Shown piece after piece: positions 2,904 to 9,719 of a stretch of 64,000 nt of DNA. This DNA comes from Podarcis filfolensis (Eukaryota). Each line of letters starts with the position of its first letter. The stretch's first letter is position 1. A model generated the notes under the pieces. It was not told where the DNA came from and did not search any database. It saw only the letters and a list, made by a program, of their open reading frames with translations. Location: the NCBI GenBank assembly GCA_964270895.1, contig OZ185437.1; one strand, written 5' to 3'. A program made the position numbers and the translations under genes.

Positions 2904-3212
2904 ACTTTATAAACACAATAGTTTAAATTGCATTCCTGCTTTAGAAACTGTTTTCCATGTCAATATGCCTCAATATGAGAGAGGCACAGGCAACATCCCT
3001 GGTAGCTCTGTGAAAATTCCTGTGGAACCTCTTGTAGGACATGATATCCAATGGCAGTCATACTCTGAGTAGACCCATTGAAACCAACAGCTTTAATTTA
3101 GTTAATAATAATAATAATAATAATAATTTATTATTTGTACCCCGCCCATCTGGCTGGGTTTCCCCAGCCACTCTGGGCGGCTTCCACAGAAAACCAAAAA
3201 TACACTAAAATA

Positions 3213-6200
3213 TCACAGATTAAAAACTTCCCTGAACAGGGCTGCCTTAAGATGTCTTCTGAATGTCAGGTAGTTATTTATCGCTTTGACATCCGATGGG
3301 AGGGCGTTCCACAGGGCAGGCGCCACTACCGAGAAGGCCCTCTGCCTGGTTCCCTGTAGCTTTGCTTCTCGCAATGAGGGAACCGCCAGAAGGCCCTCGG
3401 CGCTGGACCTCAGCATCCGGGCAGAACGATGGGGGTGGAGACGCTCCTTCAGGTATACTGGGCCGAGGCCGTTTAGGGCTTTAAAGGTCAACACCAGCAC
3501 TTTGAATTGTGCTCGGAAACGTACTGGGAGCCAATGTAGGTCTTTCAAGACCGGTGTTATGTGGTCTCGGCGGCCGCCCCCAGTCACCAGTCTAGCTGCC
3601 GCATTCTGGATTAGTTGTAGTTTCCGAGTCACCTTCAAAGGTAGCCCCACGTAGAGCGCATTGCAGTAGTCCAAGCGGGAGATAACCAGAGCATGCACCA
3701 CTCTGGCGAGACAGTCCGCGGGCAGGTAGGGTCTCAGCCTGCGTACCAGGTGGAGCTGGTAGACAGCTGCCCTGGACACAGAATTGACCTGCGCCTCCAT
3801 GGACAGCTGTGAGTCCAAAATGACTCCCAGGCTGCGCACCTGGTCCTTCAGGGGCACAGTTACCCTATTCAGGACCAGGGAGTCCTCCACACCAGCCCGC
3901 CCCCTGTCCCCCAAAAACAGTACTTCTGTCTTGTCAGGATTCAACCTCAATCCATTAGCCGCCATCCATCCTCCAACTGCCTCCAGGCACTCACACAGGA
4001 CCTTCACCGCCTTCACTGGTTCTGATTTGAAAGAGAGGTAGAGCTGGGTATCATCTGCATATTGATGGACACCCAGTCCAAACCCCCTGATGATCTCTCC
4101 CAGTGGCTTCATATAGATGTTAAAAAGCATGGGGGAGAGGACGGAACCCTGAGGCACCCCACAAGTGAGGGCCCAGGGGTCTGAGCACTCATCCCCCACC
4201 ACCACTTTCTGAACACGGCCCAGGAGGAAGGAGCGAAACCACTGCATAACAGTGCCCCCAGCTCCCAGCCCCTCTAGACGGTCCAGAAGGATGTTATGGT
4301 CGATTGTATCAAAGGCCGCTGAGAGATCCAGCAGAACTAGGAAACAACTCTCACCTTTGTCCCTAGCTCGCCGGAGATCATCAACCAGCGCGACCAAGGC
4401 AGTTTCAGTCCCATGATGAGGCCTGAATCCTGATTGGAAGGGATCCAAATGGTCCGCATCCTCCAGGCGTGCCTGGAGTTGTTCAGCAACCACGCGCTCA
4501 ATCACCTTGCCCAAGAATGGAAGATTTGAGACTGGGCGATAGTTGGCCATACTGGCCGGGTCTAAAGATGGTTTTTTAAGAAGCGGTTTAATGACCGCCT
4601 CTTTCAGCGGATCTGGGAATGTTCCCTCACAGAGGGAAGCATTCACCACCCCGCAGAGCCCATCGCCCAGCCCTTCCCGGCTTGCTTTTATTAGCCAGGA
4701 TGGGCAAGGATCAAGGAGACAGGTGGTTGGTTTCACGCGTCCAAGCAGCCTGTCCACATCCTCGGGGGTAACGGATTGAAATTGATTCCATGCAACTTGA
4801 CCAGACAGAGCTCTAGCACTCTCCCGCCCCAGCCCTGCTCCCACGGTGGTGTCTAGCTCCCTCCGAATATGAGTGATTTTATCTGCAAAAAACTTTGCAA
4901 AATCGTTGCAGGAGATCTTGGGGTCTTTACAAGGCCCCGGTGGTAAAGGTGGTTCCGTTAAATTGCGAACCACCTGAAAGAGTCTCCTGCTACTATTTTC
5001 TGCAGATGCAATAGAGGCGGTGAAGAAAGTCTTCTTCGCCGTCGCTATCGCCACTTGGTAGGCTCGAAGTTGAGCTCTAACCTGTGTCCGGTCAGATTCG
5101 GAGTGAGTTTTCCGCCACCGACGCTCTAGCCGTCTCAGCGATTGTTTCATCGCCCTCAGCTCCGAAGAAAACCACGGGGCTGTCCGGGCTCCATGCAATC
5201 GGAGAGGGCGCTTCGGAGCCAGACAGTCGATAGCCCTGGTTAACTCCGCATTCCAGCGGGCCACCAGGGAATCAGCTGAAAGGCCATCAACATGGGATAA
5301 AGCATCCCCTACCACTCTCTGGAAACCATTTGGATCCATTAAGTGGCGGGGGCGGACCATCCGAATTGGTCCCACCTCCCTGCAGAGGGGAAGGGTCGCG
5401 GAGAAGTCCAGTTGCACCAGGAAGTGATCTGACCATGGCACTTCTTTTGTTTCACTTTTACTTAGTGTCAGATCACCCACGTCACTAGAGGTGAACACCA
5501 GGTCTAAGGCATGTCCATGACTATGAGTTGGGCCAAACTTATTCAGGGACAGCCCCATGGAGGCCATGCTTTCCACGAAGTCCCGAGCGGCCCCTTGTAA
5601 GGTCGTGTCGGCATGGATGTTAAAATCCCCTAGGACAACCAAACTAGGTGTCTCCAGGAGAAAATCCGCCACGACCTGAAGCAGCTCAGACAGGGAATCC
5701 TTGGTGCAGCGGGGAGGCCGGTACACCAATAGGAATCCTGTACTGCCCCTATTGCCCAACTTCCAGAACATGCACTCAGAAAACTGGGTCTTCCCAGTAG
5801 GACGCCTGGTGCAAGCTAGTGACTTCCTAAAAATCACTGCAACCCCCCCTCCCCGCCCACATGACCTGGGTTGCTGTGCGTAAGAGAAACCTGGTGGGCA
5901 AGCAGCGGCAAGGACAGGCCCATCTGCTTCCTCCAACCAGGTCTCTGTCACACATGCCAGGTCAAATCCTCCATCCACAATCAGGTCGTGGATGGCAGTG
6001 GTTTTATTCATCATTGACCTGGCATTACACAGCAACACCTTCAGGTCATGTAGGTTTCCCCTGTTGATTCCAGTATCCATCCGGTCAAGGCCAGACCCGG
6101 AGGCAGGGATAGTCCTCAAACAACGACTAAACCTGCCTCCTCGGTAATGACATGGTCTGGTCTTAGCGTAACTCCGCCTCCTGCCCATGATCACCGAGAT

Positions 6201-6245
6201 CGGATGTCCCAGTGCTTCCCCCCCTGTGGAAGTTGTCCCAGCCAT
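3213..6245 (-). CDS. L2 ORF: AP-endonuclease plus reverse transcriptase, 1010 aa
   Basis: APE motifs (CNARS, TETWL, GGGVA, LGDFN, DLVF, SDH), RT motifs (QSGFR, LDLSAAFDT, GVPQGSVLSP, YADD) and the L2-type C-terminus HITPVLKDLHWLPV...FKVLVLTFKAL. No internal stops. Confidence 0.95.
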   Translation of the reverse strand: MAGTTSTGGEALGHPISVIMGRRRSYAKTRPCHYRGGRFSRCLRTIPASGSGLDRMDTGINRGNLHDLKVLLCNARSMMNKTTAIHDLIVDGGFDLACVTETWLEEADGPVLAAACPPGFSYAQQPRSCGRGGGVAVIFRKSLACTRRPTGKTQFSECMFWKLGNRGSTGFLLVYRPPRCTKDSLSELLQVVADFLLETPSLVVLGDFNIHADTTLQGAARDFVESMASMGLSLNKFGPTHSHGHALDLVFTSSDVGDLTLSKSETKEVPWSDHFLVQLDFSATLPLCREVGPIRMVRPRHLMDPNGFQRVVGDALSHVDGLSADSLVARWNAELTRAIDCLAPKRPLRLHGARTAPWFSSELRAMKQSLRRLERRWRKTHSESDRTQVRAQLRAYQVAIATAKKTFFTASIASAENSSRRLFQVVRNLTEPPLPPGPCKDPKISCNDFAKFFADKITHIRRELDTTVGAGLGRESARALSGQVAWNQFQSVTPEDVDRLLGRVKPTTCLLDPCPSWLIKASREGLGDGLCGVVNASLCEGTFPDPLKEAVIKPLLKKPSLDPASMANYRPVSNLPFLGKVIERVVAEQLQARLEDADHLDPFQSGFRPHHGTETALVALVDDLRRARDKGESCFLVLLDLSAAFDTIDHNILLDRLEGLGAGGTVMQWFRSFLLGRVQKVVVGDECSDPWALTCGVPQGSVLSPMLFNIYMKPLGEIIRGFGLGVHQYADDTQLYLSFKSEPVKAVKVLCECLEAVGGWMAANGLRLNPDKTEVLFLGDRGRAGVEDSLVLNRVTVPLKDQVRSLGVILDSQLSMEAQVNSVSRAAVYQLHLVRRLRPYLPADCLARVVHALVISRLDYCNALYVGLPLKVTRKLQLIQNAAARLVTGGGRRDHITPVLKDLHWLPVRFRAQFKVLVLTFKALNGLGPVYLKERLHPHRSARMLRSSAEGLLAVPSLREAKLQGTRQRAFSVVAPALWNALPSDVKAINNYLTFRRHLKAALFREVFNL

Positions 6246-6545
6246 CGTGTTGGCTGGGGCCCCACTCCCAGGCAGCCCTGATCCCGCCCCTTAAAAACAA
6301 AACGCAAACTATACAGAACCAATAAAACAACAACAACAGAAAAGAACAGAACAATTATAATAAAATTAATCCCCAACCAAATATCCATTCCCCCCACCCC
6401 CAACAAAGGAAAAAAGGAAAAAAAGAAATAAAAATTTAAATTGCCACCGACTGCTTGAGGACATTTTAAAGCACATTAACCCCCTGGAACAGGGAAGCAA
6501 TGGCAGAACACTTCCCACCCTTCCCAAAAAGTTTGTTCCAGAAAT

Positions 6546-6872
6546 GGCCTGGGCCACGCCCCCTGGGCCAGTTGGAAAAGGCCCTGGAATGGAGCAGGCC
6601 CTGCAGTCCTCACCCAGCCGATGGTCCGAGGCCTCACTGCAGCAGGAGTCCCTTTATAGCTGGGAGAGAGGGCCTGGGCCACGCCCCCTGGGCCAGTTGG
6701 AAAAGGCCCTGGAAGGGAGCAGGCCCTGCAGTCCTCACCCAGCCGATGGTCCGAGGCTTCACTGCAGCAGGAGTCCCTTTATAGCTGGGAGAGAGGGCCT
6801 GGGCCACGCCCCCTGGGCCAGTTGGAAAAGGCCCTGGAAGGGAGCAGGCCCTGCAGTCCTCACCCAGCCGAT
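6546..6872 (-). promoter_or_regulatory. 125-bp tandem monomers (2.6 copies) forming the L2 5' UTR; putative internal Pol II promoter
   Basis: Units start at 6546, 6671 and 6796, with 2 mismatches between the full units. The minus strand shows GGGGCGTGGC (Sp/KLF box) about 20 nt upstream of TATAAA (6778-6783 and 6653-6658). Confidence 0.7.
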
Positions 6873-7630
6873 TGATTTCACTGCATCTAATCTGATTAAC
6901 ATTGGGTCTCACCCAGGATATTCAGTTTGGGTAAATGTTCAGTAAGTGAGTGAGTTTAATCAATGTTATTCCTAATATAACCAACATTGGGCATCCTGAT
7001 AAGGAAAAAGGTAAGAACCTTGTAGGTCCCTGACTTTCCTTAGAGGGTGACATAAACAAGTGACTGATTAGCAATAACACACACACATGCCTGTAAGCCA
7101 AAAAAGTAGATGTTTTTACTTGAGAGGAGTCTTGATGGTAAAAGTGTACAGTACACTGTTTAGATTTGCAATTTACACTTAAATAGATAATTTTACAATA
7201 TTGTATATATTTACAAACTGAAACAAAAATATTAACATGGTCCATCGTTTCTGTAATTGGAACGCAGATGTGCTCTAAAATTCCTCTTCCCATCATAGCG
7301 ACACTGTTACAATATTCTGTACTTTAAAAATGCCTATCACGTATTGTCTTTTGAAATAAAAGCATTTGTCACTTTGCAAATTTTCATTCCTCCCTCTCCC
7401 CACTTTTTATTGTTTTGATTGACCATGATGGCCATTTTGAGGCCTGATGAAACTGACAGTTCAGCAGAGATTTCGACTTAGGTCTCAGTATAATAAATCG
7501 GAGAGTGCATTGTGTGAATTTCATGTAACAGGAGTATCGAACAGTCTCTATTGTCACATTTTCCTGATGGACATTAATTTCATACAGTTAACACATGTCC
7601 CACCCACATGGAAACTGGCTAAAGAAATAA

Positions 7631-7921
7631 CTATGAAAAAATGGACCAGTATATCAGGTTAAATAAAATGTATGCACCTGGAAATATTATTCTGGAATAC
7701 TTGTCAATGGCATGTGTATCAATCCTCATGCTGCTGTATCTCTGGTTTTTCCTCCTGCTTGAATTCCTTTCTGAGCCAAGTGCCAGCTGAACCATCATTC
7801 GGTCTTGTTTATCTCCATTTTCAGACACATACTGTCCCAGTTCATTCACCTCCCCGTCACTATAGCTGCCATCCATCCCCATCAGTTGCCTTGACTGAGG
7901 TAGTGTACAAGTGCAAGGAAG
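7631..7921 (-). CDS. GABRR1: rho1 coding exon 10 (intracellular loop, TM4, stop), 291 nt
   Basis: Encodes LPCTCTLPQSRQ...MRIDTHAIDKYSRIIFPGAYILFNLIYWSIFS*, ending in TAG. Acceptor ctctacag|. Confidence 0.98.
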   Translation of the reverse strand, partial: LPCTCTLPQSRQLMGMDGSYSDGEVNELGQYVSENGDKQDRMMVQLALGSERNSSRRKNQRYSSMRIDTHAIDKYSRIIFPGAYILFNLIYWSIFS

Positions 7922-8554
7922 CTGTAGAGGAAAGAAGGAAGATAGTTGTACTCGGGGAAAACTGACAGTTGACATATTGGAGTGGAGCAATAATGCAGCC
8001 TTAAGCTGTTGCTTCTGTCACAAATCCATAGGTGAGGACTCATCTCATCTAACCACAGTTTCTCTTATCTGGCTATGATTTCCTGCATTATTAGTAGCCA
8101 GGATAGCTGATATAAAGGTAAATTTGTGAAAATACACTATACTAGATTTTCAGTTGGCTCTTCCAAATGGTGAGCAGATACATGCTCGCAGAATGGGACC
8201 CTCTATTATTATTATTATTAGAATTAGAATTAGAATTAATATACCGCCCTATACTCTAATGCAGCTGAGGAAAGGGTGGAAATTGGGGCACCTCCCCACT
8301 TTTGCAAGTGCTTTTCTGTTAATAGAGGGCACCATGGAACCAAGCCACATTCAGGCTCATTCTATCCAATATGAGATAGTGTGCTTGTGTAGGCTGTATA
8401 GCATGAGCATTAAAATTCATGTGAAGAAACTAATGGTTTTTCCAGACCCTCCTTCCTATAGTGAGTGCAGTGTTCATCGCTGTGCCAAGACAGCTGTGAA
8501 AAATGTGATTTCCATACTAGGAAATGAATTGAAAACTAGTGGGAGCCCACCAAA

Positions 8555-8790: not shown

Positions 8791-9204
8791 GGAAACATTC
8801 AGAGGTGGCATAGTGAGCTGCACCATTTCTACCTTTTTTTTAAAAAAAGTTAATATTTGGGCATCTCATGTTGCATGTGTAGATCCAACCCGAGTAAAAA
8901 AAACAAAAACTGGTTTGAACATACCCTTGGGTAGAACACAGTTTTACTGTTAGACCCCCATTGTGTGTGTGTGTCTGTCTGTCTGTCTGTCTGATTCATC
9001 TTTAGAATCTACACAGCCAGTGCTGGTTTTCCAGGGGGTACTCAAGGGTACGCAGCACAGACACCTCTTTTTTTGTTGTTAAAAAGTGTGGCACTTACTG
9101 TAATAACTTCATGGTGAGTACCAGCACCTAGTTTTCTAGGGGGGGGGGGGAAGCACCGTACAGAGCCATTTTATCTGCACAGCACCAAATGACGTTACAT
9201 TTAC

Positions 9205-9401
9205 CTTGTCTCGCAGCTTCCGTTCCTTTCGCTCTTGCACTGTAGTCAAGTAGTTTACTGCTGCGTACTCTAACACCGAAAGGAAGACGAACACAAAACT
9301 GACCCAGAGGTAAATGTCCACAGCTTTGATGTAGGAAACCCGAGGCATGGAGGCATTGACGCCCGTGATGATGGTAGACATGGTCAGCACCGTCGTGATC
9401 C
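9205..9401 (-). CDS. GABRR1: rho1 coding exon 9 (TM2-TM3), 197 nt
   Basis: Encodes (G)[65 protein letters not shown]. Acceptor tctccag|, donor AAG|GTAAAT. Confidence 0.98.
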
Positions 9402-9719
9402 CTGGAGACATACAATAATCCGTTTGGAGATGTCATTTTGGTGACAACTTGGCTTTGTTTACCCTAAACAGAGGGCCAAGTGTTTCATTAAGAAATGAAA
9501 TGCTAGCTTGAGGTGGGCTGCTCTACCTTCTTTGAATGGTGAGCTATCATCTTCCATGCTGTCACCTTTCTCTGGTTGTGGCCTGGTGCAAATTGTGTGC
9601 TGGATTGCATGAGCTGATGCATGGATGACCTGTGGGCTGATGGTACAGCCCTTGGACACAGATTTAGACCAAGGCTGCAGTCCTAAACATATTCACTAGG
9701 GAGTAAACTGCACTGAAAA

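Follow-up and report, generated by a model that had tools for sequence, protein, structure and literature searches.

LINEs are generally said to need promoters that lie within their own transcripts (PMC6454616, PMC2377424). For mouse L1, erosion and regrowth of monomer promoters have been described (PMC10620060, PMC6454616). The mouse L1Md families A, Tf and Gf carry monomers and a tether, vary in unit number and have 5' ends at one offset (PMC6454616, PMC10620060, PMC9022269). In the passages cited, daughters are 0.6–1.8 units shorter than their donors and regrowth by duplication is proposed, while unequal crossing-over in mouse L1 lacked quantitative support according to Zhou and Smith. In HeT-A of Drosophila and in Penelope the promoter is provided by a repeat that lies upstream, a principle that resembles LTRs although no LTRs are present (PMC5537684, PMC2377424). 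Single-ORF vertebrate L2 elements (ZfL2-2, UnaL2 and Anolis L2) have one ORF with endonuclease and reverse transcriptase and a structured 3' end (PMC3880073, PMC3747384), and the part of PMC5381506 cited here describes the 5' UTRs of lizard L1 clade 1 as free of tandem duplication. No description of a monomeric TATA promoter for a vertebrate L2 was found in the literature searched.

We analyzed a window of 64,000 nucleotides from Podarcis filfolensis (contig OZ185437.1), by which we mean this stretch at its full length. Its minus strand, on which all features of the element lie, carries an intact LINE with a single open frame of 1025 codons from stop to stop (3213..6290, first ATG at 6245). 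The frame encodes an APE endonuclease and a reverse transcriptase, and no RNase H domain was among the Pfam matches. Such a one-ORF form is allowed for the L2 clade in the part of PMC3880073 used here. The closest named proteins were a lacertid (93%) and an Anolis (55%) reverse transcriptase protein (full-length), and the protein relatives came from lizard and fish, without clade names. A stem-loop in the 3' UTR (3138..3187; z −4.84, 0 of 200 shuffles as stable) is accompanied by a trinucleotide tail (TAA)n (3103..3127) in place of poly(A). A 3' stem-loop with a short-repeat tail is typical of L2. The element is probably an L2-type LINE, a label taken from this anatomy and from C-terminal motifs that we take to be those of L2.

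No target-site duplication flanks the LINE, which splits an imperfect palindromic repeat (3060–3102 and 6873–6905). None of the candidate duplications was convincing; the few of 6–9 nt overlap the AT-rich tail. The LINE lies about 760 bp downstream of the stop codon of a ligand-gated ion channel gene on the same strand. Exons of this gene lie at 7631–8017 and 9128–9463 (minus; Pfam Neur_chan_memb at E 4.7e-6, slightly short of the curated threshold), and it is presumably GABA-rho-like. A SINE-like element with a tRNA-like head, presumably a Sauria SINE, occupies 2546–2900; similar sequence flanks one other copy (L119) and interrupts a second (L152).

The 5' end of the LINE is a tandem array at 6546..6872, for which TRF gave a period of 125, 2.6 copies and 99% matches. 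Alignment resolved two full units that differ at exactly 2 positions and an outer piece of 77 nt, as a preliminary description of this locus had stated. Monomer positions count the first T of TATAAA as 1, which puts the GC box GGGGGCGTGGC at positions 96–106. It lies 19 nt ahead of the next TATA, a distance previously given as about 20 nt. Read from the 5' side, the GC box of the outer partial unit (6803..6813) precedes the outer retained TATA box, TATAAA (6778..6783), the GC box of the middle unit (6678..6688) precedes the innermost TATAAA (6653..6658), and the GC box of the innermost unit (6553..6563) has no TATA behind it. The array leads into a non-repeated tether of 255 bp (6291..6545), in which a U-rich tract terminates with an AG that resembles a splice acceptor. 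The copy begins at monomer position 37, that is 36 nt behind the first T of the missing TATA, which agrees with the earlier measurement. With a 2-nt microhomology taken into account its 5' end is at position 37–39 (6870..6872), the first two bases possibly belonging to the target. It is about 5 nt shorter than the modal start of the family at position 32.

The genome was then the basis for a comparison of copies. The TATA motif had 145 exact matches spread over the genome, and a control pattern had 0. Copies of the subfamily of the window element, here called A, were sampled via a 21-nt anchor just 3' of the array, which avoids selection on the 5' end. This anchor gave 51 exact matches, all 51 with monomer sequence upstream. 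The preliminary description had allowed that the array could be a local satellite; the genome-wide motif matches together with the monomers upstream of every anchored copy rule this out. An LTR or proviral repeat was likewise rejected, as the arrays lead into LINE body and tail. The bodies are 96.2–99.8% identical to the window copy (n=51). A frame of 1024 codons or more survives in 26 of 51, which marks the family as young. The number of units ranged from 0.35 to 12.7 (n=51), in line with the variable unit number that had been predicted.

For the phase of the 5' ends we left out one copy ending in N (L034) and three of four copies with one common junction (L067–L069), which gave 47 independent insertions. 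Their ends were strongly focused: 37 of 47 fell at positions 27–40, with the mode at position 32 (10 of 47). In 20,000 uniform simulations the fullest 14-nt window held at most 20 of 47. Further A copies found via the TATA motif or the ORF ended at 27–40 in 12 of 16 cases (P 5e-9); L086 and L090 had no usable anchor and L093 was a duplicate of L092. The expectation that 5' ends should share one monomer offset is thereby borne out. For comparison, 24 copies truncated in tether and ORF had ends scattered over 390 bp (6048–6436). The remaining 10 of the 47 A insertions do not fit this offset, and 8 of these end at positions 80–110.

Several unusual copies were observed. One insertion was duplicated four times (L066–L069), with its array joined at position 70 to an antisense fragment of LINE body, possibly by 5' inversion or nested insertion. 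Five copies (L042, L052, L065, L079 and L084) show a recurrent 14-bp deletion or duplication between short direct repeats at monomer positions of about 89–112, which removes or doubles the GC box. Three independent truncations (L105, L106 and L121) share one ORF position, equivalent to 6150 of the window, and on contig C76 at least 4 tandem copies (L103, L108) are cut at the same base, equivalent to 6259, with a distance of 4.2–4.6 kb between them.

Position 32, a G that follows a C in a pyrimidine-purine step (C|G), is 31 nt downstream of the T with which TATAAA begins. The consensus spacing places a TATA box about 30 nt upstream of the start. The A unit thus has a TATA at about this distance from a pyrimidine-purine start, where the start is read from DNA ends. 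From the focus and phase of the ends we infer that they mark transcription starts. Copying of the cap is expected to leave an extra non-templated G. Of the 11 ends at position 32, 8 had such a G ahead of them, where 3.1 were expected (P 0.003). In the truncation control it was seen in 6 of 14, a level that the position-32 ends do not clearly exceed (Fisher P 0.14). Pooled over the modal sites of the subfamilies the count was 20 of 24 vs 6 of 14 (P 0.013), with counts made by eye and sites chosen post hoc. The cap-like G is suggestive only as a sign of a capped start.

RNA reads were inspected from a related species (four runs, 6–12% of each read). The four runs contained 43 element reads with tandem units, some of them crossing unit junctions, and it is on these reads that the presence of the array across species is judged. 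No pile-up of RNA ends at the start site was seen among the 43 reads. Two further element-flank junctions were recovered, at positions 33 and 34, with 3 reads each.

Ends at one position per unit could also arise if reverse transcriptase stopped, or the RNA was cleaved, at a recurring site in each unit, because of a structure or a ribozyme. The A unit can fold as a long hairpin from about position 41 to 125, and 8 of the 10 outlying ends are inside it; moreover, in the passage cited, Gerdes et al. could not exclude truncation for single copies (PMC10620060). However, the main cluster is on the 5' side of the hairpin, at which no stall would be expected, and the fold has a z of −0.94 with 33 of 200 shuffles as stable. 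Rfam returned no family at threshold for the A unit, and neither an HDV-like descriptor nor a hammerhead core gave a match, using a home-made descriptor not validated on positives. On these fold, Rfam and descriptor results a self-cleaving ribozyme at the 5' end was rejected. Taken together with the displacement of ends in the sister subfamilies described below, we regard a stop or cleavage site as very unlikely, and read the ends as probable starts.

Related elements were searched by ORF, whereby 150 of 3305 candidates were scored and 80 regions retrieved. Three sister subfamilies were found (B, C and D), and unit lengths across the types were 106–133 bp. A, B, C and D form separate branches on a tree of 460 columns, with rough supports, and the B, C and D monomers align to A with z of 4.8–8.3 against shuffles. 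In C the site reads TATAAGG or TTTAAGG, and the spacer from TATA to GGAC is 9 nt shorter than in A. From 27 anchor matches we obtained 13 independent C insertions with ends read by eye. Starts were exactly at +30 in 5/13 and within 27–40 in 7/13, and they fall 7 nt past the motif that marks the start in A. One copy among 26 matches started behind the innermost TATA, inside the tether, at about +32, which is consistent with the other starts but too few to inform.

The D sites are weak matches to TATA. D starts were at about +30 to +36 in 6/13 (by eye) and in 3/6 new insertions (30 of 69 matches examined). Two D copies started in the tether, one at +20 and one ambiguous. One D insertion (L321) has spread with subtelomeric duplications over many chromosomes and was seen at about 20 loci near contig ends.

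Subfamily B was sampled with 73 of 122 matches (contigs C1–C17), reduced to 71 after collapsing one triplicate, and two ends were corrected by eye. B seems to have lost, by deletion, the segment with the old TATA. At the site 30 nt upstream of the ends, 129 units read CACAAGG (71), CATAAGG (36) or CACAGGG (20), and most B units have no TATA-like site. The ends were focused less sharply than in the TATAAA-bearing A, with 37/71 in the best 14 nt vs 37/47 (P 0.004). B spacers are 29–30 or 36–37 nt long, and the ends of the two classes had medians of +1 vs −6 from a common downstream landmark. This spacer effect had a one-sided P of 0.008, or P 0.056 with a wider window, for a site defined after the fact and for spacer classes that are largely different sub-lineages. 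In both classes the ends lie about +30 from the upstream site. The ends in C and B thus move against homologous local sequence, which speaks against a stop or cleavage site. The preliminary description had further proposed that the parent was transcribed from the TATA of a further upstream monomer. The phase of the ends is in agreement with this, but not every subfamily needs a canonical TATA, because the B and D sites are degenerate.

The start could instead be fixed by an internal promoter like that of mouse L1, in which factors bound downstream (at the GC box at about +65, at GTGAG or at an initiator) set the position and the TATA is incidental or a helper. The clustering in B despite mostly non-TATA sites would fit this explanation, as would a GTGAG that follows the ends by 14–23 nt in each of the four monomer types. 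In mouse L1 the ends are clustered close to a YY1 site, as described in part of PMC10620060; against this likeness, no YY1 core (CCATNTT) was present on either strand of the A array. Measured by hand across the four types, the distance from the ends to the TATA position also varies less (29–32) than that to the GC box (44–57) or to GTGAG (14–23). Furthermore, B ends follow the length of the upstream spacer, with one downstream landmark common to both spacer classes, and the modal distance equals the textbook TATA spacing. We consider such an internal promoter unlikely. An upstream cue for the end position fits these comparisons best, and a downstream contribution may exist.

We therefore return to the upstream reading. 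It is probable, judged from the arrangement of units and ends, that the array works as a relay of promoters, where each unit would be the promoter for the next, would be spent at a jump and would be regrown by duplication in DNA. Each unit would act as an ordinary upstream Pol II promoter with the GC box near −56 and the TATA at −31, and the RNA would start in the next unit at position 32. With its RNA starting there, a daughter would be without the TATA that fired and without any of the units ahead of it. In the window copy, the outer retained TATA box would start the RNA at 6752, the G at position 32 after a C, as predicted from the modal 5' end of other copies. The innermost TATA would start it at 6627, a kind of start that corresponds to 6 of the 37 clustered copies; a daughter begun at 6627 is predicted to retain no TATA.

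The number of intact TATA boxes left in the 37 clustered copies was 0 (6 copies), 1 (9), 2 (9), 3 (2), 4 (2), 5 (5) and then 6, 7, 9 and 12. Apparently any unit can fire, so that at least one TATA, and not exactly one, would be lost per jump, and one or more units, often several, would go with it. The idea that each round uses up one promoter unit is thus upheld for the loss and replaced for the amount, with one TATA as the minimum and often several. A copy with 1.66 units would have one promoter and an 82-bp direct repeat for possible expansion. A copy with 0.66 unit (about 0.6) would have no TATA and would be a promoter-poor dead end. Slippage or unequal exchange between units would refill source copies.

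A splice-donor-like GTGAG (6609..6613 in the window), which by alignment recurs in every unit and across the four monomer types, may have a role in splicing. Together with the U-rich tract and the AG at 6290–6291 it would delimit a possible 5' UTR intron in all subfamilies. A spliced retrocopy joining the donor-like site of a unit to the acceptor of the tether gave 0 matches for the one junction tried. On balance we lean, if only slightly, towards a still wider reading. It describes a lizard L2 lineage without an internal promoter, whose upstream GC box and TATA would never be in its own RNA and would form a cartridge of spare promoters that is spent and refilled. The spacing of about 30 nt would have been kept through four redesigns of the monomer, one of which lost the old TATA and appears to be evolving a new one, and the units may open a small 5' UTR intron.

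Regrowth of the array by duplication had also been predicted, and support at the DNA level was found in subfamily B. One B insertion on contig C19 has 15 segmental duplicates with one 5' junction and flank and with 3–9 units. Their region is ampliconic and may be affected by misassembly or by exceptionally frequent exchange, and the duplicates are from B rather than A. One of them has a single copy of a 3-unit block that is doubled in six others, and a 2-unit block present once in one duplicate is tripled in another. In a C insertion, 1/12 duplicates was without one unit. Because duplicates of one insertion differ at a fixed 5' junction, the unit number changes in DNA after insertion. C19 itself (43 Mb) holds 13/51 of the A copies with an anchor, along with numerous segmental duplicates from B and C, and might at a guess be a repeat-rich sex chromosome. 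Within A, private variants recur across units in two arrays (L036 and L084), and multi-unit blocks are repeated in a third (L055). One A sub-lineage forms a nested series of 1.1, 2.6, 6.1, 9.2 and 12.7 units with common inner variants and some internal differences. For the C19 duplicates, the repeated blocks suggest that units were gained, provided that the assembly is accurate there.

Arrays might alternatively regrow mainly during retrotransposition, when the cDNA at the RNA 5' end re-anneals at least one unit downstream and is recopied. In one B copy (L187) the 5' terminus carries a 30-nt duplication of itself, as a jump of the reverse transcriptase could produce, and block repeats reach the 5' end in several arrays (L036, L176). 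Both routes are discussed for mouse L1 in the part of PMC6454616 cited. The C19 duplicates, however, differ in unit number and blocks with a fixed 5' junction, which needs no retrotransposition, and internal deletions as well as expansions occur within A arrays. We judge regrowth mainly by retrotransposition to be unlikely, although it and regrowth in DNA are not mutually exclusive.

In comparison with known systems, the lizard family resembles mouse L1 in its tandem units and tether, in its variation in unit number and in having ends at one offset. In the passages cited, mouse L1 belongs to the L1 clade and has two ORFs and units of about 200 bp, whereas the lizard family is L2-type with a single ORF and units of 106–133 bp. 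Mouse Tf starts near a YY1 site with a main peak 15 bp upstream (in the passage of PMC10620060 cited), in contrast to the sharp start of lizard A at TATA +31. The lizard A unit has only 3 CpG, the lizard spacing is kept across four monomer types and there is direct paralogue evidence for gain or loss of units in DNA. The word "TATA" occurs 0 times in the main texts of PMC10620060, PMC6454616 and PMC9022269. The LTR-like logic of HeT-A and Penelope would be shared by the lizard L2, but in those elements the 3' UTR of an adjacent copy serves as the upstream unit, whereas the lizard L2 has a dedicated short array inside the element. The Penelope promoter is, in contrast to that of the lizard L2, described as internal and TATA-less in part of PMC2377424.

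In summary, the lizard array is a real feature of the whole family and probably a variation on the monomeric promoters of mouse L1, with unusually strong comparative support for upstream positioning and for turnover of units in DNA. No TATA-positioned relay in an L2 was found described in the literature searched. The family appears to replace the in-transcript promoter by expendable upstream promoters. Across its four monomer types, core-promoter spacing has been varied by nature as in a mutagenesis series, and the 15 duplicates with 3–9 units are a direct example of unit change at the DNA level. The lizard family is a simpler system in which two questions about mouse L1 become testable, namely which element fixes the start and by which route the array regrows.
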